IMG/VR virus record: IMGVR_UViG_2541047837_000006
Location: 1 to 14,084 of that record
DNA from: a virus
Taxonomy: Duplodnaviria; Heunggongvirae; Uroviricota; Caudoviricetes
DNA length: 14,084 bases
Strand: one strand, 5' to 3'
Shown: positions 3,303-12,636 of the stretch, piece by piece
How the letters are laid out: the number at the start of each line of letters is the position of its first letter
Numbering within the stretch: the first letter of the stretch is position 1
Notes under the pieces: model-generated
The model's input: only the letters and a program-made list of their open reading frames with translations
Databases searched by the model: none
What the model was told of the DNA's origin: nothing
Made by a program: the position numbers and the translations under genes

Positions 3303-3521
3303 TCAAAGAGAGAGCGCCACCTGCCCTGATTTCATTGGATGCGGCTGAACCGGATTTGACTCTTTTGGCGTTGCAATCGAACGAACAAAAGTTTCATGAG
3401 TAACAAAAGTATGGCTGCAGTTAATGTTCTGGCACTGGTTGTAACGCTCTTTGGTCAATGAAGATACCTGAAAACTGCTGCGAGTATGGGCGGCACTTCC
3501 ACACAGTGGGCAAATCATCAT
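3303..3521 (-). CDS. ogr: Ogr/Delta-family zinc-finger late transcription activator
   Basis: 72-aa product from ATG at 3521 (SD-like GGGGAGAA upstream); C-x2-C-x22-C-x4-C motif (CPLC ... CQNINC). The ORF is open to a GTG at 3554, so the start is uncertain. Confidence 0.85.
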   Translation of the reverse strand: MMICPLCGSAAHTRSSFQVSSLTKERYNQCQNINCSHTFVTHETFVRSIATPKESNPVQPHPMKSGQVALSL

Positions 3522-3611
3522 TTTTCGAGTTCTCCCCATTTTTGCTAAATTCACAATAATGATACCGCATTATCCCATTTTGCAAACTTAAAAGTTCTCC
3601 ATTGCGAAGAA

Positions 3612-4880
3612 TCATTCCATTTCGAAATCATCAATCCTCACTTCAAGCTCCAGACTGGTCGTAAAACCATTATCCGGGCTGACGGTATGTGTCAGAGTCG
3701 TAATGGTCCATTCCGCATCATCTATCGGCTGTTTAAAGCCACTGACTTTCACTGGCATTTCCGTGTAGAGATCTGCCCGCCCTTCCGCCAGTTGTAGCGA
3801 GAATGACGCAACGCCGCGTTGCAGGCGTTCCCACTGCATTTTCGCCGCTCGTTCAGCGTTGCCCCGGTTGGCATAAGTACGATTAAGTACCAGCACGTTT
3901 TCATCCGTACCCACCAGGTAATCGCCCTGCTTCGCTTCCGGCTCTTTCTTCTGCTTTGCGGTCCTGCGCTTACGCTTCACCGTGGTGCTTTCTTTCTTCG
4001 CGGGTTCGCGGGTATGCAACCAGCTGGCAATTACGCCCGTGTAAGATCCGCGATCTGCCAGGGTAAAGCGGTGACTGTCGCCGTCCTTACGTGTGATAGT
4101 GATCACCGGCAGTGGTTTACCGCTGGCGCTTTTACCCTGTCCCTGCCGAATGAATAACAGATTGCCATTTTTCACCGACGCAATAGCACCGTACTGGCGC
4201 GCCAGCCGCATCAGAAAACTGCCGTCACTCTCATTAGTCTGGTCTATATGTTCCACGGGTTTATCTGACAGGTCTTTACCCAGTGCCATCTTCAGCTTGT
4301 GACGCGCGGCTATTTCCTTCACCACTTCCCCAACTGTGGTCTTGTGCCACGATTTTTCACGGCGGGTATTCAGCGTTTCCCGAAAATCAGCACTTCGCGC
4401 CCGGACACCGTCCACAATTTCCACCATGTTGATAAGGTCCACTTCGTAGAGCACCTCACCATTGATGGTCAGCTTCGCGTAGCTGTTGGTACTGGTCACT
4501 TTGGTGGTGTTGCTTTCGCCCGTCTTCCACTCGCCGGAATCCACTTCTTTGTGACGTCCACGCACCACAAGCTCCACGGCCTGCACTTCCCCGGTATCGT
4601 CACGCTGGATAGAGCCGGTAAAGCGCAGCTGGATGCCATCCACCGTAGCTTTGCCCATCTGCTTAAACAGCAGCAGCTCAGTACCGCCAATGGAAAATTC
4701 AGTATCCAGTGCGCCGTCATCCAGTCCCAGATCCACATCCACCGCCCCCGGCATACCGCCGCCGCGATACTTCTCATATTTGCGGGTGAATTTCGGCAGC
4801 GTCAGCGACTCTACGATCCCCTGCCAGTTGTTCCCGTCGTTAAACAGGTTCAGATGTTTTAATTTACGTGGTAAAGCCAT
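3612..4880 (-). CDS. Chimeric ORF: tail tube FII-like N-terminus (~155 aa) fused in frame to tail protein D-like C-terminus (~265 aa); probable deletion product
   Basis: N-terminus MALPRKLKHLNLFNDG resembles P2 FII tail tube; C-terminus resembles the gpD family and sits directly upstream of ogr as D does in P2. The genes expected between FII and D (E, E', T, U) are absent. Confidence 0.65.
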   Translation of the reverse strand: MALPRKLKHLNLFNDGNNWQGIVESLTLPKFTRKYEKYRGGGMPGAVDVDLGLDDGALDTEFSIGGTELLLFKQMGKATVDGIQLRFTGSIQRDDTGEVQAVELVVRGRHKEVDSGEWKTGESNTTKVTSTNSYAKLTINGEVLYEVDLINMVEIVDGVRARSADFRETLNTRREKSWHKTTVGEVVKEIAARHKLKMALGKDLSDKPVEHIDQTNESDGSFLMRLARQYGAIASVKNGNLLFIRQGQGKSASGKPLPVITITRKDGDSHRFTLADRGSYTGVIASWLHTREPAKKESTTVKRKRRTAKQKKEPEAKQGDYLVGTDENVLVLNRTYANRGNAERAAKMQWERLQRGVASFSLQLAEGRADLYTEMPVKVSGFKQPIDDAEWTITTLTHTVSPDNGFTTSLELEVRIDDFEME

Positions 4881-4889
4881 GTTGCCCCC

Positions 4890-6062
4890 TTACGCGCTTA
4901 CCTGGCTGGAGAAATTCACCAGGTACTGATCGGTGATGCGCTGACGCAGCATCAGGTTTTCAAGTGGCGGTACTGGCGTGTAGTCGTAATCGATGGTGAG
5001 TTTTCCGGCTTTCAGCGTGTCTTTATCGTTCACCGACTCGTCCAGCCAGCAATCACCACCAATGAGATAGCCCTGACTGACCAGGCTGCGCATTTTGGCG
5101 CGAATACCTTCGATAATGTCGCGGGCCAGCGACGGGTTCAGCGGTTTGTCCACCGCCCACATATGCGCTTCTGCCATCGTGTCCATCAGTACCTGCGCCG
5201 TGCGGGTGTAGTTTTCGAAGGCAAAGAGCGGGTCATCACTCAGGCAGCGGGAACCCCAGAAGCGGAAACCGTCTTTGCGGATAAGCGTGGTGACGTCGTT
5301 CTGGTTAAGCAGTCCCGCATCGGTTGCCGGGTCCTGCAGATCCCAGAACACATCAGCAGAAATTCCGGTGACACCGTTCACGCCTACGTTGGACAGGCTC
5401 TTGTGCCACCCGGTCTGCTCATCAATTTTGGCGCGCAGACCGAGCGCACGGGCGGTGGCATATGCCGTTGCTTCGGCATTCAGCACCGTGTCCCAGCCAG
5501 TAAAGTCAGGCCAGATCAGCATCCCTTCGCGCTGACTGAAGTTTTCACGGTAAGTGATCGCCTCCTGCACTGTCTTGCAGCCATACGCTGACAGGTAAGC
5601 AAACCCGCGCAGGCTTTGCGCCACACTCAGCAGCTCAGTCGCAACGGCTTTGTTATCGTGACCCGGCACGCCGAGAATGCGCGGTTTAACGCCGAGCTGT
5701 GACTGGGCAGATAACAGGGCTTTCATACCTGTTTTTTTACCCTCGGCGGTCACTGCGCCAATGATATTGGTTGTGGTTTCTTCTTCCGTTTCACCCTGCG
5801 GCACACGCACAACAACGGTCACGGGTTTTGCCTGGTCAGCGATGGCATCCAGCGAACGGGCCAGCGTGCCGGACTCACCCGCTTTACCGCTGGCAGTCAG
5901 CACATCAGTGATCAGCACGGGTTTATTAAGAGGAAACATTTTTGCATCGGCATCATCGCCCGTGCAGACCATGCCCACGATGGCGGTGCTCACCGTGGTA
6001 ATGGATCGGGTGCCTTCGTTGACTTCAACAACGCGCACTCCGTGGTGGTAATCCTGAGCCAT
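4890..6062 (-). CDS. FI: Contractile tail sheath protein FI
   Basis: 390-aa product; N-terminus [19 protein letters not shown] and C-terminal region [13 protein letters not shown] match P2 FI as I recall it; immediately upstream of the FII-like ORF. Confidence 0.9.
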
Positions 6063-6084
6063 AAGGCAGTCTCTCCGGTTGTAG

Positions 6085-6160
6085 AGGGGGTCTGCCTATG
6101 TTCTGGTTGATACGCGCAGGGTGCACGCGATGGGGATTGTATGGGAAATGGCACAACAGC
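6085..6160 (-). promoter_or_regulatory. Putative Ogr-dependent late promoter pF (dyad TGT-N12-ACA at 6138-6155)
   Basis: TGT (6138-6140), 12-nt spacer, ACA (6153-6155); dyad centre about 85 nt upstream of the FI ATG, consistent with a -55 activator site and ~30-nt leader. Confidence 0.5.
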
Positions 6161-6275
6161 GCCATGAGGGCTTTTCATAAAATAATCAATATATCTCAAT
6201 ATGTATTGATTATTATACGCAAATCTATTTTACTATTGCGCATCTGTCATCCATTTAAATCAGATTGAATACTAT

Positions 6276-7307
6276 ATGAAAAGAGATATTTCTTTAGACC
6301 TGTTACGTATTATTTGTTGTATTTTTGTAATAGGAATTCATGTCACGCCCGACTATGCTTATACTGTTACCAGTAACCAAACAGAAAGTATACAAATACA
6401 AACTCTTTTTGCACAATCAATTGTACGCATTGGTTTACCAATATTCTTTATGTTAAGTGGATACTACCTACTCAACAGACAAAATAGCACTCCACTTTTG
6501 TTTTATAAAAAAAGAATCCCCGCCATTATTATCCCTTTTGTAATATATTCATTAGCACATTACTATATTATTAGCTGGAATAATGGAACGTCATCGAATT
6601 TACTTGAATATTTCTCATTAATATCTAAAAGCACTATTTCACTCTCTGTGCATTTCTGGTTTGTTTATGCCTTTATCGGTTTGTATTTAACCGCTCCAGC
6701 AATTCAATACATAGTCAATAAAATCCCACAAGCCGACAGCCTTAAGGTGATTATAGTTTTGGCTTTCATTTTTTATTATTCATTATACTCATACTCTCTA
6801 AGCCAATCCTCTCAATACTACCATCATTTAATCCCATTACAGAGCATAGATACATGGGTTTTATATTTTGTTGTCGGCGGATTATTAAAAAGAGTTGACA
6901 TTAAAACACATTATATTGTATATAGCATCCCTTTTATATTTTTACTACATGTGATGTTTGTTTATTTTAGCGTTAACAAATATAACTTTAACATATACCC
7001 ATTTGACTCAGGGATTAATATGTTGTTAATGTGTTCCTTGATAGTAATTGCATTTACAAAAATAAACATCAATAATAAAAAAATAATTTTAATCATTGAA
7101 AAAATAGCACCTCTGACATACGGAATTTATTTAATTCATGTTTGTGTTTTCAGAGTCTTAGAGAAATATTTCAATATTCCTTTTATCGTGGACAACATTT
7201 TACTAAAAACAACATCCCTGTCTTTAGTCATTTTTTTTATCAGCCTTGGTTTAAGCTTGATTATTGATCGGTTGTTTGTTAATCCAATTCTCAGACTGAA
7301 TCGTTAA
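6276..7307 (+). CDS. Acyltransferase-3 family integral membrane protein (Oac/OafA-like acyltransferase); prophage cargo gene
   Basis: 343 aa, highly hydrophobic with multiple predicted TM segments; N-terminal LDLLRIICCIFVIGIHV resembles the family signature; strongly AT-rich; occupies the position of Z/fun in P2. Confidence 0.72.
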   Translation: MKRDISLDLLRIICCIFVIGIHVTPDYAYTVTSNQTESIQIQTLFAQSIVRIGLPIFFMLSGYYLLNRQNSTPLLFYKKRIPAIIIPFVIYSLAHYYIISWNNGTSSNLLEYFSLISKSTISLSVHFWFVYAFIGLYLTAPAIQYIVNKIPQADSLKVIIVLAFIFYYSLYSYSLSQSSQYYHHLIPLQSIDTWVLYFVVGGLLKRVDIKTHYIVYSIPFIFLLHVMFVYFSVNKYNFNIYPFDSGINMLLMCSLIVIAFTKININNKKIILIIEKIAPLTYGIYLIHVCVFRVLEKYFNIPFIVDNILLKTTSLSLVIFFISLGLSLIIDRLFVNPILRLNR

Positions 7308-7767
7308 ATGGCTTAGTCGGAAAGGCTGTATCAGAGGCTTTTGATGGATCAATAGCCTCTAATGCTTCAATATAATCAAGCCATATGTTATACATTTCCA
7401 GTTCAGTAGCATTCAGTCTCCCAAGCAATGCTTTCCCCTGCCATTGTTTGTTATTTATATAATTTACAGCTTCTATTATACGTGCTTGTTTTTCAGTTTT
7501 TGCTTTAGCCACTAACTCTGTATATGTGAGTGGTGGCGTATCAATCCATGCAGGCATACCATTATCATCTGCCCCAAGAATTTTTCCTTCCGGAGGTTGT
7601 TTCATGAATTCACAAGCAGTCTCATTTGAAATATCCACCCCTTCCTTAGGCCACATTCCATTTCTTTCATATTCATTTTTTAATATATACGCCATAAATC
7701 TGGCATTTACCTTATCCCATATGAAATCATAAGAAGAATCATGTTGATAATCATCACAACTTTTCAT
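7291..7767 (-). CDS. Tail fibre assembly chaperone (Tfa / gpG-like)
   Basis: 158-aa ORF starting 2 nt after the H stop; soluble protein with a C-terminal region resembling Tfa proteins; AT-rich like the 3' end of H. Confidence 0.6.
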   Translation of the reverse strand: MKSCDDYQHDSSYDFIWDKVNARFMAYILKNEYERNGMWPKEGVDISNETACEFMKQPPEGKILGADDNGMPAWIDTPPLTYTELVAKAKTEKQARIIEAVNYINNKQWQGKALLGRLNATELEMYNIWLDYIEALEAIDPSKASDTAFPTKPFNDSV

Positions 7768-7769
7768 AT

Positions 7770-9209
7770 TTAATATCCAAATGCAATAAATACAGCGCCT
7801 GAAACTTTTGAATCACTGCTGGTTCCTGATGTCAAACAAGTTACAGCAGTAAACCCATCATTATATATACTTTCGCACGACGTAACGACTTGTGCATATG
7901 TCATTTTTGTGACAAACACACCCCATACTCCGTTAGGGAATGGCGTTGGATATGTAATAGGAAGCTGTTGTGGAATACCAATAGTTGTACTATTAGGAAG
8001 ATTTCTTCGAAATATTTGTATAATTAAACCATTCGGACCTTTAACCAACAAATTATCGCTTCCTTTTCCTGTTAGCTGAAAATAGCTCATGTCAGGGATT
8101 TCATAACTATTAGCATTACCAACATTTCTACCTGCCGCATTTCCCAAATGCCCTAAACCAAGATAAGTAAGAATTCCTTCTATATCCTTTCCACTCAAAT
8201 TAGTCAGCGTATTATCCAGCGGTTGTTTGCCTGCCAGCGCATTAAGCATTGTCGTGGCAAAGTTCGGGTCATTCCCCAGCGCCGCCGCCAGTTCGTTCAG
8301 TGTATCCAGTGCCGCAGGTGCAGACCCCACCATTGCTGCAATTGCCGATTTCACAAAAGCTGTAGTGGCAATCTGTGTATTGTTGACCGACTGCGCCGCC
8401 GTGGGGGCTGTTGGCGTTCCGGTGAGTGCCGGACTCGACAACGGTGCTTTTAGTGCCAGCACATTGTTAATGGTGGTACTGAAATTCGGATCATTGTTAA
8501 TGGCTGCGGCTATTTCTTTCAGCGTGTCCAGCGTGGCTGGCGCACCATTAATAAGGGCCGTCAGTGCCGCCTGAACAAACGCAGTGGTCGCAACCTGCGT
8601 GGTATTATTCCCCGCCGCTGGCGTTGGCGCTTTGGGGGTTCCGGTAAACGTCGGACTTTCTTTGGGTGCATACTGTGAATGTGGGTCCTGTGCGGCAAGG
8701 TGTTTTGCCATCAGGTCATCCACATACACCTTCAGCTCCAGTACCTTGTCATCCACATACTTGCGGGTTGCCAGCACTACAGCAGGATCGATTTTCAGGG
8801 TGATATTTTCCGTGCTGCTGGTAATCAGCACCATGCGCACGGTCTGGGTGCGCCCGCTGCCTTCAGCCAGTTGCGGCTTATAGCTTTCCGGGCAGTTGCC
8901 CACGGCAATCAATGCCCCGGACTCATCAAACAGGCCCACTTCACGTATCCACCAACCTCCCTCGTTTTCAGGGATCACCTGTTCGGCAATAATCTGGCTG
9001 CTGTTCTGCGGGTCGATATAGAGCATATTCAGCGCAGCCCGGCGTTTCTCATTTACCAGTGCCGTCTGCTTTGCGTCCGGCGTTGGCAATGTTCCGCCGC
9101 CATCGCCGACCGCCATATGGGTAATTTTTAAAGGCACACCGAGCGCGGCGGCGCTGGCAAGTTTCGCCGCGCCAATATCCGTCAGCAGGGTATAAAATTT
9201 TGTGCTCAT
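7770..9209 (-). CDS. H: Tail fibre protein H with conserved N-terminus and divergent C-terminal receptor-binding region
   Basis: N-terminus MSTKFYTLLTDIGAAKLA ... MAVGDGGG ... ESYKPQLAEGSGR resembles P2 gpH; internal repeats contain the NELAAALGNDPNF motif; C-terminal ~160 aa unrelated and AT-rich. Confidence 0.85.
   Translation of the reverse strand: MSTKFYTLLTDIGAAKLASAAALGVPLKITHMAVGDGGGTLPTPDAKQTALVNEKRRAALNMLYIDPQNSSQIIAEQVIPENEGGWWIREVGLFDESGALIAVGNCPESYKPQLAEGSGRTQTVRMVLITSSTENITLKIDPAVVLATRKYVDDKVLELKVYVDDLMAKHLAAQDPHSQYAPKESPTFTGTPKAPTPAAGNNTTQVATTAFVQAALTALINGAPATLDTLKEIAAAINNDPNFSTTINNVLALKAPLSSPALTGTPTAPTAAQSVNNTQIATTAFVKSAIAAMVGSAPAALDTLNELAAALGNDPNFATTMLNALAGKQPLDNTLTNLSGKDIEGILTYLGLGHLGNAAGRNVGNANSYEIPDMSYFQLTGKGSDNLLVKGPNGLIIQIFRRNLPNSTTIGIPQQLPITYPTPFPNGVWGVFVTKMTYAQVVTSCESIYNDGFTAVTCLTSGTSSDSKVSGAVFIAFGY
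8230..8700. repeat. Diverged tandem duplication (~230 bp unit) inside tail fibre gene H
   Basis: Two protein-level repeats (ATTAFV...ALDTL.E.AAA...DPNF.TT) and corresponding DNA similarity, e.g. gttccggtgagtgccgg versus gttccggtaaacgtcgg; boundaries approximate. Confidence 0.55.
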
Positions 9210-9811
9210 GGATTCACTCTCATTGTGTCAATAACATGGACCGCCCCGCCTTCATGCGCGGTGCCGCCGGAAATAATTGTTTCGTTGATATACGGATAGA
9301 TCGTGATTTCTTCACCAAGATAGCTGGCGGCTCCCACCCAATGCGGGCCGCTGGTCTGCAGATTGATGGACATGCCGATCATGTGACGGCTACATGGTTT
9401 GGCATCGCTTATCAGCCGCTCAAGCTCCAGATAGGTATCTTCAGTGATGCCCTGGTCCTGCACACCAATGTCCAGGCGAAACGTACCCGGTGTTTCTCCG
9501 GTCTGCCACCACTCAATAATGCGGATCAGGAAGCCGAACGGCTCCACCACCCGCCGCACGGCACTGGTGGTTCCTTTATGCTGATGAATATAAAAAGCAT
9601 CCTTCACCACCTGTCGTTTGACGCTTTCCGTCCAGCCCTCGTCCCAGCGATCCACAGAGAACGCCCAGGCGAGATAAGGCAGGAAACTGATCGGACAGGT
9701 CGTTGGATTCCACAAGTCACGCAGCGGCACCTGCAGATCAGAAATCCCGCTGCAGGTTTGCGCCAGTCGGCGCTCCAGTGGCGTTGAACCCGGTGGCAGC
9801 AGACTATTCAT
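9206..9811 (-). CDS. I: Baseplate/tail protein I
   Basis: 201-aa product with the motif LRDLWNPTTCP ... LAWAFSVDRWDE ... GTFRLDIGV ... DAKPCSRHMIG resembling P2 gpI; start overlaps the preceding J' stop and its stop overlaps the H start. Confidence 0.8.
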   Translation of the reverse strand: MNSLLPPGSTPLERRLAQTCSGISDLQVPLRDLWNPTTCPISFLPYLAWAFSVDRWDEGWTESVKRQVVKDAFYIHQHKGTTSAVRRVVEPFGFLIRIIEWWQTGETPGTFRLDIGVQDQGITEDTYLELERLISDAKPCSRHMIGMSINLQTSGPHWVGAASYLGEEITIYPYINETIISGGTAHEGGAVHVIDTMRVNP

Positions 9812-10034
9812 CCGTTCCTCCGTTGGTTACGCTCCACTGCGTACATGATGCCGCCTGTGTTTTGTTCAGGACCACATCCGCCAGAGGAGAAGCCAGCTCC
9901 ACACGCTGCACACCCTCAACATGCAGGGCGGCAAAGATGGCGCTACGGCGAATATCCCGACCAAGACGCGTCTGACTGGCGATGTACTTCTGCAGGCTGG
10001 CTTTTGCCGCTGCCATTACCGGCTCTGCTTCCGG
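9804..10034 (-). pseudogene. J: Baseplate protein J, C-terminal ~70-aa fragment
   Basis: Translation AKASLQKYIASQTRLGRDIRRSAIFAALHVEGVQRVEL resembles the gpJ C-terminus; the frame is closed by a stop at 10035-10037, so the N-terminal ~230 aa are absent. Confidence 0.6.
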
Positions 10035-10375
10035 TCAGCGAACTTCGGGCTGACTTCCATAGAGGTGAATAATTTCTGGCCTTTTTTCACCAGTTCCACC
10101 AGGGACTCCGTTGGCTCAACGTCGGCATACAGCGCCATCTTGCCTGCCAGCGGACCTTCCGTGATTTCTTCAGCAAACAGCGCCGTCACCTTGCCGTAGC
10201 GGTTAAAGGTGCTGTCCGGCAGATAAGACTTGATGTGCTCAAGGTTAATCAGCGCGGTATACACCGCCGGGTTGTAGCTGGCTGCCATCTGTTCCAGCCA
10301 TTCTCGCTGGATTTCGCGTCCGTCGGTGGTGGCACCTTCCACCCCGATGCGAAAACGCTTTGCTTTCACTGTCAT
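10016..10375 (-). pseudogene. O: Capsid scaffold protein O, N-terminal ~110-aa fragment
   Basis: Translation FRIGVEGATTDGREIQ ... INLEHIK ... TSMEVSPKFA resembles the gpO N-terminus; ORF ends after 119 aa versus ~280 aa for intact O. Confidence 0.65.
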
Positions 10376-10517: not shown

Positions 10518-11372
10518 ATGAACACCACACTGACACCCGCAGATCTCGATCCCCGTCGGCAGGCCATGCTGCTGTACTTTCAGGGATACCGCGTAGCCCG
10601 CATTGCTGAAATGCTGGGCGAGAAAGTTGCAACCGTTCACAGCTGGAAAAAACGCGACAAGTGGGGTGACTATGGGCCGCTGGATCAGATGCAGCTCACC
10701 ACCGCCGCACGCTACTGCCAGCTCATCATGAAGGAGCACAAAGAAGGGAAAGATTTCAAAGAGATTGACCTGCTGGCGCGCCAGTCTGAGCGCCACGCGC
10801 GGATCGGCAAGTTTAACAATGGCGGCAACGAATCCGACTTAAACCCTAACGTCGCCAACCGCAACAAAGGCCCACGCCGTCAGCCGGAAAAGAATGTTTT
10901 CACCGATGAGCAGATTGAGAAGCTGGAAGAAATCTTCCATTCCTCCATGTTCAACTACCAGCGCCACTGGTGGGAAGCCGGAAAAACCAACCGCATCCGC
11001 AACCTGCTGAAGTCACGCCAGATCGGCGCGACCTTTTACTTTGCCCGTGAAGCCCTGATTGACGCCCTGCTGACCGGACGTAACCAGATTTTCCTTTCCG
11101 CCAGCAAGGCACAGGCCCACGTCTTTAAGCAGTACATCATCGACTTCGCCAAAGAAGTGGAGGTGGAGTTGAAAGGCGATCCGATGGTGCTTCCTAACGG
11201 GGCCACGCTTTACTTCCTCGGCACCAATGCCCGCACTGCCCAGAGTTATCACGGCAACCTGTATCTGGATGAATATTTCTGGATACCGAAATTCCAGGAG
11301 CTGCGCAAAGTGGCTTCCGGTACCGCACCTGCAGCAACACGCCCGATCTCTGCGGTTGCACTCATGACGTAA
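10518..11372 (+). pseudogene. P: Terminase large subunit P, N-terminal ~268-aa fragment
   Basis: Translation ...[15 protein letters not shown] ... [12 protein letters not shown] ... [15 protein letters not shown] ... [15 protein letters not shown] resembles the gpP N-terminus; similarity ends near 11321 and the ORF stops at 11372 versus ~590 aa for intact P. Confidence 0.8.
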
Positions 11373-11662
11373 TGTGGCAGTTTCTCTTTTGCCACCTCAT
11401 TAATTGGTACGCATGGCAGGCAGTGAATCTGTGCCAGAAAACCATCTACCAACGTTGAATCTTCAGTCAGATCGGTAAGCAGCCAGATTTCTGGTGCGGT
11501 TAATAAATGAGGTTGAGCTGGGTTCAGCTTGTTCCGCAGAATCTGCACATTCATGCCCGCACGTTCTGCCAGTTGCACCAGATTGTGGCGCAGTGCGAAT
11601 GCACGACAGGCTTCATCAAAATGTGGATGTTTGGAAACTTGGTAATCAAACATGGTTTTCAA
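11249..11662 (-). pseudogene. 186 CII-like transcription activator, 3'-truncated; ORF tail runs antisense into the P fragment
   Basis: N-terminal ~105 aa with an HTH-like segment ([19 protein letters not shown]) and position downstream of the apl-like gene; the last ~30 codons are the antisense of P coding sequence. Confidence 0.5.
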
Positions 11663-12066: not shown

Positions 12067-12636
12067 GTGGATTTCAATAGCGGCGGTAAGAAAGCCATAG
12101 AACGTTTAGTTGAAGCATATGGGTTCGGTACCCGTCAGGCTCTCTGTGATCATTTAGGTGTTTCTAAGAGCACCATGGCAACGCGCTATATGCGTGATAT
12201 TTTTCCAGCAGATTGGGTAATCCAGTGCGCCCTTGAAACGGGCACCTCGCTTAATTGGCTAACAACAGGGCATGGTTCAAAGCAAGCATCAGCAAATACA
12301 AATACTATAGAAGTAGAAAAATATTTATTGTCTGATGGAGCATTGCAGAAAGACGGTTTTTATATTTTTGATAAGGGATTTCTACCCTCTACGTTTAAAA
12401 AACCTTTTGTCATCACAGATAACAATTCTGAATTTATTTGTGATAAAGAATTTGATGATATACGTGATGGTAAATGGGTAATAAGTATTGATGGCGAAAT
12501 AACGATCCGTGACATTACTCGTTTACCCGGTGGAAGAATCTTCGTCGAGGGTGGAAACAGAGCCTTCGAATGCAAGATAGAAGACATTGAAATAATTGGT
12601 AAAATTATAAGTTTAACAGTCAAGCATGTTAAATAG
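12067..12636 (+). CDS. 186 CI-type immunity repressor (~189 aa)
   Basis: Divergent from apl and upstream of int; LVEAYGFG N-terminal region and overall length consistent with the 186 CI family. Start set at GTG 12067 (GGAGGA at 12058-12063); the ORF is open to a GTG at 11980, so the start is uncertain. Confidence 0.65.
   Translation: MDFNSGGKKAIERLVEAYGFGTRQALCDHLGVSKSTMATRYMRDIFPADWVIQCALETGTSLNWLTTGHGSKQASANTNTIEVEKYLLSDGALQKDGFYIFDKGFLPSTFKKPFVITDNNSEFICDKEFDDIRDGKWVISIDGEITIRDITRLPGGRIFVEGGNRAFECKIEDIEIIGKIISLTVKHVK

Follow-up and report, generated by a model that had tools for sequence, protein, structure and literature searches.

What is encoded by the gene that occupies the variable site between the tail fiber genes and FI in the P2-like prophage of the window (the whole stretch of 14,084 nucleotides analyzed here), and on which molecule does its product act? 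The site is the Z/fun (G-FI) position of P2, and the ORF found there begins with ATG and encodes 343 amino acids with the N-terminus MKRDISLDLLRIICCIFVIGIHV. It is flanked by the tail fiber chaperone gene and the tail sheath gene FI and is transcribed in the direction opposite to both. It converges with the chaperone gene, with whose 3' end it shares its last 17 nt, and a terminator scan between the two genes found none. The G+C content is 29.7% in the ORF versus 57% in FI and 54% in the 5' part of the tail fiber gene H. The features of this locus are as follows.

4890-6062, minus strand: FI tail sheath gene, intact, backbone flank (Phage_sheath domains)
6063-6157, minus strand: conserved upstream region of FI with a TGT-N12-ACA dyad at 6138-6155, flanking the cassette
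6158-6275, plus strand: A+T-rich upstream region of neaT with its native promoter, left end of the low-G+C cassette
6276-7307, plus strand: neaT, putative inner-membrane acyltransferase consisting of an acyltransferase-3 (AT3) domain only, 343 aa
7291-7767, minus strand: tail fiber assembly chaperone gene, P2 G-like, yfdK/c0969 in CFT073 (Caudo_TAP, E=7e-23; G+C 36.5%)
7770-8150, minus strand: 3' part of the tail fiber gene H, C-terminal tip of ~126 aa, right end of the cassette (Gp53-like_C, PF21882, residues 392-479; G+C 36%)
8151-9209, minus strand: 5' part of H, collar and shaft, common P2-like backbone (Phage_tail_fib, E=2e-65)

Judging from sequence identity, the ORF is neaT (c0970) of prophage phi-b0847 in Escherichia coli CFT073, already known and not new, having been published by Wiles et al. 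2013 (PLoS Pathog 9:e1003175, PMC3573123). The window protein and CFT073 NeaT are identical at 341 of the 343 residues (99.4%; 99.2% at the nucleotide level), and the window allele differs by M252L and I273T. Both copies reside in phi-b0847-type prophages with the same ybjL-rcdA integration/att site and the same flanking genes, lie between G (yfdK) and FI in the opposite orientation, and share a G+C content of ~30% and the PF01757 domain; Wiles et al. already described the location, direction, Pfam assignment and low G+C of the gene in these terms (PMC3573123). On the other hand, the window copy is found in a deletion-riddled, non-inducible remnant, and its host is an O6 strain of another background that lacks the kps cluster at yghD-pheV. 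The first-pass annotation of the window had missed the published identity of the gene.

In the 2013 paper, neaT is a phyletically rare, prophage-borne virulence/fitness factor of a reference uropathogenic strain (PMC3573123). The only phenotypes demonstrated concern virulence and surface behavior rather than phage resistance: neaT has a role in fitness during bacteremia and affects aggregation and macrophage association, with both knock-out and complementation phenotypes being published (PMC3573123). Plac-neaT led to aggregation in CFT073, Nissle, ED1a, S88 and F11, and lowered cellulose/pdar in Nissle (PMC3573123). Neither a change of the O6 serotype nor seroconversion of strain HS was observed, and both the LPS ladder and lysozyme resistance were unaltered (PMC3573123). 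The idea that the yfdK knock-out clipped the overlapping 3' end of neaT was considered and rejected, as the primer table puts the start of the deletion just past the neaT stop codon (PMC3573123).

The first-pass annotation had proposed a 343-aa multi-pass membrane protein with an AT3-like N-terminus, and both the profile search and the structural model agree with an AT3 integral membrane protein. The Pfam profile PF01757 (Acyl_transf_3) matched NeaT with E=1.9e-40 and 139.3 bits, far over the cut-off of 31, and the alignment paired residues 5-330 with profile positions 2-324 of 326. Based on this match, the family assignment is regarded as far beyond chance. PHROG 3333, labeled 'O-acetyltransferase', matched NeaT at 2.4e-22. 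The AlphaFold2 model was all-helical and multi-pass with a pLDDT of 94.9, and fits a polytopic helical bundle with the transmembrane acyltransferase fold. The AT3 domain spans NeaT end to end without any further Pfam domain, and no SGNH domain was found by the Pfam search or in the model, which has no extra globular domain. The phmmer search against PDB sequences gave no match, no family was assigned by the NCBIfam search, and 0 families of the PADLOC defense models matched NeaT at E<=0.01.

We examined the AT3 motifs following the definitions in PMC9558356. The R/K-X10-H motif is present in the first transmembrane helix as R11 and H22, and the V-x-x-F-F-x-(I/V/L)-S-G-(F/W/Y) motif is represented by L54-P-I-F-F-M-L-S-G-Y63, in which L replaces the first V. 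At the RxxR position in the first cytoplasmic loop, NeaT has Y77-K78-K79-R80, a basic KKR variant with the first arginine replaced. Across 49 homologues, F57, S61 and H288 are invariant, and H22, R80 and H126 are conserved in at least 90%. The motifs conserved in NeaT are the AT3 motifs essential in Oac, OafA and Lag-1 (definitions in PMC9558356).

The gene map places neaT at the Z/fun site, opposite to the late genes, as had been claimed, and the comparison across genomes revealed that neaT is part of a larger unit. Together with the chaperone gene and the DNA for the fiber tip, it constitutes a 2-kb low-G+C cassette at about 6158-8150. Homology with other P2-like prophages ends at 6157 on the left; positions 6063-6157 (95 nt) still match many neaT-less P2-like prophages at 95-99%. 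The right breakpoint at ~8150 was seen against >1200 other E. coli prophages, the 5' part of H being common to 1217 genomes at 92-96% identity. The neaT gene, the chaperone gene and the tip DNA all mark one identical set of 9 genomes among 5426 complete E. coli genomes, and the cassette shows 98-100% conservation even where the prophage backbones diverge by ~4%. The same is seen in the comparison with CFT073, in which FI is ~96% identical versus 99% for the cassette. No SGNH partner gene was found within the cassette. Relatives of the window prophage carry a Cin/Gin-type invertase with alternative fiber tips at the G-FI site.

An A+T-rich upstream region of its own had also been attributed to the gene, and this agrees with the A+T richness of 6160-6275 and with the finding that a 211-bp upstream fragment suffices for the expression of neaT in CFT073 (PMC3573123). 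Candidate hexamers were read by hand, namely TTGATT at 6206-6211 and TACTAT at 6231-6236 with a 19-nt spacer; both are kept upstream of the orthologue in Citrobacter freundii and may serve as the promoter elements of neaT. A strict sigma-70 scan upstream of neaT found no promoter on the plus strand. The dyad at 6138-6155, read from the sequence, is conserved in the Citrobacter remnant. The region 6063-6157 is probably the Ogr-dependent late promoter P_F, a role that we presume from established knowledge of P2 late promoters.

The first-pass annotation spoke of a P2-like element. The P2-like nature of the prophage stands, but the phage is no longer intact: what is left is a defective remnant in which FII is fused to D (FII::D), a J'/O' junction is present and P is truncated. 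Two E. coli remnants with different deletions both retain an intact neaT. Likewise, the C. freundii orthologue (76% identity; present in 89 blocks of the collection searched) is intact, and the ~3.5-kb remnant that surrounds it at the same ybjL site has fragmented tube and sheath genes. Judging from the substitutions, the window neaT is under purifying selection: the dN/dS value was 0.09 against CFT073 (6 synonymous and 2 non-synonymous changes) and ~0.06 against the C. freundii orthologue. The locus is a clean example of prophage decay around a retained conversion gene.

All of the neaT carriers possess the O6 versions of wzx/wzy (9/9), versus 154 of the 5426 genomes overall (2.8%). The nine carriers represent two O6 allele groups, two host backgrounds and three prophage variants, and the association with O6 is backed by no more than 2-3 independent lineages; the fiber tip, through its host range, could account for it by itself. 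Strain HS, the heterologous host of the published tests, which we take to be O9, was absent among the O6 wzx/wzy matches listed. The published results on serogroup and LPS ladder are weak tests of O-acetylation, because such assays cannot detect an O-acetyl group. The O-antigen acetylation with serotype conversion and phage exclusion that the first-pass annotation had suggested is therefore neither established nor refuted by them and stays a candidate function. To our knowledge, O-acetyl groups are absent from the published O6 structures, and a literature search found no O-acetylated O6 antigen. In the neaT-negative strain ATCC 25922, the O6 repeat unit comprises three hexoses and two N-acetylhexosamines and has a mass of 892 Da without acetyl mass (PMC11148006).

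The neighborhoods of the homologues were also surveyed. At 13 of the 23 homologue loci, the immediate neighbor of the AT3 gene is a fiber-plus-chaperone pair, a tailspike or a T7-type fiber; an SGNH esterase domain was found in two of those adjoining tailspikes, and a separate SGNH partner at one locus. The tblastn search against 50,697 deposited phage genomes (1e-5) retrieved only two weak metagenomic matches, and Sf6 was not among them. From this search, the neaT family appears essentially absent from sequenced free phages. The one-genome-per-species scan, which contributed only four or five Enterobacterales loci, found relatives of <=37% identity, mostly generic AT3 proteins of ~26% in Bacteroidota and Firmicutes.

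Altogether, NeaT is best read as a transmembrane O-acetyltransferase that modifies the glycan serving as the receptor of the phage, probably the O6 antigen, the substrate being the part that we infer. The fuller reading that we favor, tentatively and at somewhat short of an even chance, is that neaT encodes a functional AT3-only inner-membrane acyltransferase, is carried as a moron by a phi-b0847-type P2-like prophage and would mask the receptor glycan, most likely the O6 antigen. The evidence favoring a receptor-glycan target is circumstantial and comprises the co-inheritance with the fiber tip, the restriction to the O6 cluster and the homologues lying beside receptor-binding genes. We infer the acyl donor, the acceptor and the role in phage exclusion as follows. 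NeaT would bind acetyl-CoA (or another short acyl-CoA) on the cytoplasmic face, at a site formed by R11-X10-H22 of helix 1 and the basic K78-K79-R80 loop. The acyl group would then cross the helix bundle, and a hydroxyl of an envelope glycan would be esterified on the periplasmic side. The acceptor would most likely be the O6 O-antigen, as the glycan that the co-inherited fiber tip would bind, whether still a repeat unit on its undecaprenyl carrier or already polymerized. In lysogens the acylated receptor would then be hidden, leading to superinfection exclusion and to fewer progeny phages lost on debris, and altered surface properties would be a by-product that explains the aggregation, macrophage association and bacteremia fitness. 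A benefit of neaT to the host would explain the retention of the gene while the prophage decays. A bolder version, possible albeit doubtful in our view, is a mobile 2-kb module for binding a receptor and then hiding it, in which an O6-specific tip, a chaperone and an O6-antigen O-acyltransferase recombine as a unit between P2-like backbones. It would further entail that an undescribed O-acylated O6 variant underlies the bacteremia phenotype of CFT073, and that neaT has been domesticated in LR-64-2-type E. coli and C. freundii, the phage having been discarded.

Strains ED1a and S88 are presumably not O6. Forced expression of neaT aggregates these two strains as well and lowers cellulose in Nissle (PMC3573123). 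This counts against the O6 reading and may point to a target that E. coli strains have in common, or to an artifact of over-expression. Further points against the favored reading are the unaltered O6 serotype and LPS ladder, the O6 structures without an O-acetyl group, the few lineages behind the O6 association, the KKR variant of RxxR, the cassette without an SGNH partner and the remote similarity to proven O-antigen acetylases. NeaT may instead acylate a conserved envelope glycan (enterobacterial common antigen [ECA], LPS core, osmoregulated periplasmic glucans [OPG], cellulose or PNAG), with the O6 restriction being a matter of the host range of the tip. P2-type fibers classically bind the LPS core, which fits this proposal, and among the characterized proteins compared WecH (E=2e-10) is closer to NeaT than Sf6 Oac (E=0.003). 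The aggregation by Plac-neaT in five strains, the reduced cellulose/pdar in Nissle, and the unchanged LPS PAGE and serotype point the same way (PMC3573123), although these phenotypes were obtained with a plasmid-borne, leaky lac promoter and could be indirect. However, WecH and OpgC already serve ECA and OPG in E. coli, and a conserved target gives no reason for the O6-only hosts or for the homologues beside tailspikes of the O-antigen or capsule type, esterase tailspikes included. We deem a conserved acceptor unlikely on balance, albeit worth serious consideration.

The K2 capsule of CFT073 is another conceivable acceptor, by analogy with NeuO of prophage CUS-3 acting on the K1 capsule. The K2 capsule exists both with and without O-acetylation. 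Its kps cluster is present in CFT073, and a capsule change could explain the macrophage and bacteremia phenotypes (PMC3573123). Nevertheless, yghD-pheV of the window strain LR-64-2 lacks a kps cluster, yet neaT of this strain is intact and under purifying selection. K2 was found in 141 genomes, and of the neaT carriers only those of the CFT073 type were among the 60 of 141 matches listed. Because capsule-less carriers exist, this acceptor is disfavored and seems highly improbable. Gram-negative bacteria use PatA/PatB for O-acetylation of peptidoglycan, and this counts against NeaT acting in the manner of OatA, by O-acetylating peptidoglycan and so conferring protection from lysozyme. OatA does belong to the AT3 family and the possibility was considered by Wiles et al., but the lysozyme resistance was unchanged (PMC3573123) and NeaT has no SGNH domain, leaving this idea scarcely credible. 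Finally, neaT could be a functionless hitch-hiking or decaying passenger, or an intracellular anti-phage defense like other Z/fun cargo, considering that the prophage is defective, that the locus is known for defense cargo and that the gene is rare (9/5426 genomes). The dN/dS values of 0.06-0.09, the frame kept intact amid broken neighbors, the conserved catalytic motifs, the lack of a PADLOC match and the published knock-out and complementation phenotypes (PMC3573123) make this very unlikely, and the polytopic membrane acyltransferase fold is unlike known abortive-infection proteins.

As a discovery, the neaT gene is ordinary, being in the literature since 2013. What is added here is the intact neaT in a defective prophage, the cassette, the restriction to the O6 cluster and the neighborhoods of the homologues, which narrow the search for the substrate of NeaT. 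O6 is a component of the O-antigen conjugate vaccines against ExPEC. If the proposed modification of the O6 antigen is true, then an acylated form of O6 that goes unrecognized in some invasive strains would be of relevance to serology and vaccine coverage.

Among the known systems, the eukaryotic transmembrane acyl-CoA acyltransferases HGSNAT and GWT1 are distant from NeaT, with 10-12% identity, larger sizes and eukaryotic substrates. P2 Z/fun and other G-FI cargo share the variable site of P2-like phages with neaT, whereas Z/fun is a protein of another kind with no evidence of sequence relationship, and the variable unit of neaT extends beyond the G-FI insert to include the fiber tip and chaperone. 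WecH (YiaH), the ECA O-acetyltransferase of E. coli, is AT3-only with ~331 aa and was the best pairwise match among the characterized proteins compared (31% over 140 aa), but it is encoded by a chromosomal core gene and the similarity is confined to the N-terminal third.

Oac/OacA of Shigella phage Sf6, OacB-D and Oac of PhiV10, which are serotype-converting O-antigen acetylases, resemble NeaT in being AT3-only, ~330-345 aa in size, prophage-borne and low in G+C, with their own promoter, and in bearing the R/K-X10-H and FFxxSG motifs. In Sf6, oac is also convergent with a receptor-binding gene (gene 14 tailspike). Nevertheless, the match between NeaT and Sf6 Oac is remote (29% over 128 aa in BLASTP; hhalign probability of 84% over the N-terminal ~90 residues only), and NeaT is partnered by a P2-type fiber and its chaperone instead of an endorhamnosidase tailspike. 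For NeaT, acetylation of the O-antigen and exclusion of phages are proposals. GtrC of the Salmonella prophage BTP1 and OafA/OafB are likewise AT3 proteins of prophages or islands that acetylate the O-antigen. GtrC(BTP1) maintains the O-antigen length by shielding the O-antigen from the phage's own tailspike. GtrC(BTP1) is reported to be implicated in O-antigen modification and required for the maintenance of O-antigen length. GtrC and OafA/OafB differ from NeaT in having a fused periplasmic SGNH domain (PMC9558356), and GtrC(BTP1) is the model case of one protein acting in both phage interaction and virulence.

The gene that the first-pass annotation read as an acyltransferase-3 (AT3) membrane protein gene is almost certainly neaT, which encodes an AT3-only membrane acyltransferase. 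The reading of its 343-aa product was confirmed by profile search, as Pfam Acyl_transf_3 matched NeaT over its whole length (139 bits, against a cut-off of 31 bits; E=1.9e-40), and PHROG 3333 'O-acetyltransferase' was matched at 2.4e-22. Its description as an AT-rich gene running opposite to the late genes, between the fibre genes and FI (tail sheath), also held: neaT lies on the + strand and the late genes on the - strand, and the G+C content of the ORF is 29.7%, against 57% in FI and 54% in the 5' part of the tail fibre gene H. The relevant features are as follows.

3303-3554, ogr, intact in the window remnant
4890-6062, - strand, FI, tail sheath gene, adjoining the upstream side of neaT
6276-7307, + strand, neaT ORF, ATG start, 343 aa, N-terminus MKRDISLDLLRIICCIFVIGIHV
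7291-7767, - strand, tail-fibre assembly chaperone gene (Caudo_TAP E=7e-23)
~6158-8150, cassette holding the last ~126 fibre residues (Gp53-like_C tip), the chaperone gene and neaT

On its upstream side neaT is separated from FI by a 213-nt spacer, and neaT and the chaperone gene are convergent with a 17-nt overlap. No terminator was seen between the two convergent genes, nor any obvious Shine-Dalgarno sequence for neaT. A perfect TGT-N12-ACA dyad lies at 6138-6155, some 84 nt ahead of the FI start codon, within 95 nt conserved among P2-like prophages and the Citrobacter freundii remnant. It is probably P_F, an Ogr-dependent late promoter directed away from neaT. A candidate neaT promoter, TTGATT-N19-TACTAT, was found at 6206-6236, a motif missed by a strict sigma-70 scan; both hexamers are kept upstream of the C. 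freundii orthologue in an otherwise diverged region.

In CFT073 the gene is c0970, and Wiles et al. (PLoS Pathog 2013; PMC3573123) named it neaT ('nomadically evolved acyltransferase') and reported its orientation opposite to the flanking genes, its G+C content of 29.84%, its rarity in E. coli, and that its native upstream fragment of 211 bp drives its expression. Eight nucleotides separate the window allele from CFT073 neaT, comprising six synonymous changes, M252L and I273T. Thus, the initial observation was real and rightly read, but already known; our literature search turned up no subsequent work on neaT. In the same study, neaT was required for full zebrafish virulence and for fitness in mouse bacteraemia, and affected swarming, while its forced expression caused aggregation in swim agar, lowered macrophage association, and weakened cellulose and curli staining in Nissle (PMC3573123). 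Resistance to lysozyme, polymyxin B, acid and serum, as well as biofilm formation, was unaffected according to the table of 'inconclusive' results (PMC3573123). What is new here is the description of the cassette, its restriction to genomes with O6 gene clusters, and the persistence of neaT as its prophages decay in E. coli and C. freundii. The best homologue of neaT available in 2013 was 33% identical; closer ones now include those of Citrobacter (76%), Enterobacter hormaechei (59%) and a myovirus prophage (56%).

Compared with many P2-like prophages lacking neaT, homology breaks on the left at 6157, just beyond the conserved FI promoter region, and resumes on the right at ~8150, inside H, the 5' part of which is common to 1217 genomes. 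Between these points the G+C content is uniformly low (30-36%). The tip-plus-chaperone DNA and neaT occur in exactly the same 9 of the 5426 complete genomes and nowhere else. The window segment 6063-8150 shares 98-100% identity with CFT073 and PEC399, compared with ~96% for the backbone flanks at 4890-6062 and 8151-9811 (FI, 5' H and I). This shift in identity at the cassette boundaries, which are also the G+C breakpoints, implies that the cassette was transferred as a single unit between diverged backbones, and is evidence of its recent spread among P2-like prophages by recombination. The first-pass annotation described the locus as a known variable one, and related E. coli P2-like prophages (L114, L115 and L116) carry at the H-FI site a Cin/Gin-type recombinase together with alternative genes for the fibre tip and chaperone in inverted orientation, equivalent to a Mu/P1-style host-range switch at the position of neaT. 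Thus, we regard the H-FI site as devoted to host-range determinants.

The E. coli LR-64-2 chromosome (human faeces, Ecuador) matched the window at all but one of 14,084 bases (position 12625, C versus T), and the window derives from LR-64-2 or a near-clone. The P2-like prophage, inserted between ybjL and rcdA, is defective and no longer a phage, as seen from three lesions.

3612-4880, in-frame FII::D fusion, a 422-aa ORF in place of E, E', T and U
9804-10375 (joint ~10016), J'/O' junction, where the C-terminal end of J meets the N-terminal third (119 aa) of scaffold protein O
10518-11653, truncated terminase gene P, abutting a cII-like fragment

The prophage is intact at the same site in CFT073 and PEC399. 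Strain E423 has the FII::D deletion too, but its second deletion is another one, joining I to the portal gene; as only the first deletion is in common, the decay has been stepwise and independent. Nevertheless, neaT is intact in both E. coli remnants. In C. freundii, the 76% identical orthologue (L003-L005) adjoins ybjL, just as the E. coli prophages do, and occurs widely in the species (89 blocks of the collection). The remnant there spans only ~3.5 kb, with a tube fragment, the sheath gene in three ORFs, an 84-aa chaperone stump and an intact ORF for a 344-aa acyltransferase. Such retention is what one would expect of a conversion gene domesticated by the host. The window has lost the second P2 hotspot, which adjoins the portal gene; elsewhere (L002 34442-36802, L015 23843-27840, L016 34411-38820) the cargo of this hotspot differs in each neaT prophage, being a TIGR02391-family protein in CFT073, an AIPR protein with DarT and a macro-domain protein in E423, and ParA with a PD-(D/E)XK nuclease in PEC399.

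Judged on an alignment of 49 homologues and the motif definitions in a review (PMC9558356), the AT3 signature residues appear to be present and conserved in NeaT. Helix 1 bears R11-X10-H22, and L54-PIFFMLSGY63 corresponds to V-x-x-F-F-x-(I/V/L)-S-G-(F/W/Y), the serine of which is essential in Lag-1 (PMC9558356). The basic K78-K79-R80 stands where other AT3 proteins carry RxxR, and H126-FWF and Y285-LIH288 are further conserved motifs. The dN/dS ratio was 0.09 against CFT073, based on few changes, and ~0.06 against the C. freundii orthologue, with synonymous sites saturated, indicating purifying selection. Altogether, NeaT is very probably catalytically active on some envelope glycan, and a gene without function is unlikely.

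The O6 wzx/wzy genes were detected in all nine neaT carriers (four CFT073 assemblies, UPEC_U013, LR-64-2, E423, PEC399 and VE-F10), as opposed to 154 of 5426 genomes (2.8%) overall. The carriers comprise two O6 allele groups 2% apart and two chromosomal backgrounds with flanking DNA 98.4% identical, the second background containing two prophage variants 2.7% apart. If two or three independent events are assumed, the probability of this arising by chance is about 8e-4 to 2e-5 by count arithmetic that is not phylogenetically corrected. To our knowledge, the published O6 structures contain no O-acetyl group. The O6 repeat of ATCC 25922, a neaT-negative strain, has a mass of 892 Da, made up of three hexoses and two N-acetylhexosamines and including no acetyl mass (PMC11148006). 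Strain HS, presumably of serogroup O9, is absent among the O6 wzx/wzy matches listed. The neaT mutant kept serotype O6, introducing neaT into HS caused no seroconversion, and LPS PAGE profiles were the same (PMC3573123). Since the mutant would be expected to type as O6 in any case and HS is not among the O6 matches listed, this negative serology has no bearing on an O6 target.

From linkage, distribution and analogy, we tentatively propose that NeaT may acylate the glycan receptor of its co-inherited fibre tip, probably the O6 antigen; homologous phages would thereby be excluded, and surface behaviour and virulence would be altered incidentally. The main rival, to which we assign a low but appreciable likelihood, is that NeaT acts on a target which E. 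coli strains have in common, for instance ECA, LPS core, OPG or cellulose. It is suggested by the aggregation also seen in strains ED1a and S88 and by the effect on cellulose (PMC3573123). These data came from plasmid over-expression. ED1a and S88 are not known to be O6. The K2 capsule is unlikely, since LR-64-2 lacks the kps cluster at yghD-pheV, which rules this capsule out as the selected target in that strain. Action on peptidoglycan and a role in intracellular defence are likewise unlikely. Beyond the 2013 paper, the receptor-acylation proposal offers a sharper, cheaply testable hypothesis for the NeaT substrate.

We surveyed the neighbourhoods of NeaT homologues (29-76% identity) at 23 further loci, 13 of which have the AT3 gene directly abutting a receptor-binding gene. 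All the homologues are ~30-36% in G+C, as opposed to 44-58% in their hosts.

L007, L098, L100, L102, L106, L017: AT3 beside a chaperone and a Gp53-like_C or fibre-repeat fibre
L003: AT3 beside a chaperone stump
L101: gene order fibre-AT3-sheath
L013: AT3 beside a pectate-lyase tailspike
L008, L010: AT3 beside T7-type fibre proteins
L103 2449-4374, L104 2633-4759 (IMG/VR prophage contigs): tailspikes with Tail_spike_N and an SGNH/GDSL esterase domain, convergent with AT3
L097 (in addition to the 13 loci above): a separate SGNH protein of 232 aa (5865-6563) comes after the AT3 gene

The remaining loci are prophage ends beside integrases or chromosomal sites. The SGNH/GDSL esterase domain of such tailspikes acts on acylated polysaccharide. 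The arrangement in L097 looks like a two-gene form of the AT3-SGNH enzymes OafA and OafB; it could be one acetyltransferase split into AT3 and SGNH parts, or else an acetylase and a deacetylase working on the same receptor. In phage Sf6, oac is convergent with the tailspike gene, as neaT is with the chaperone gene. Sf6 Oac is only remotely related to NeaT (E=0.003), WecH being somewhat closer (E=2e-10).
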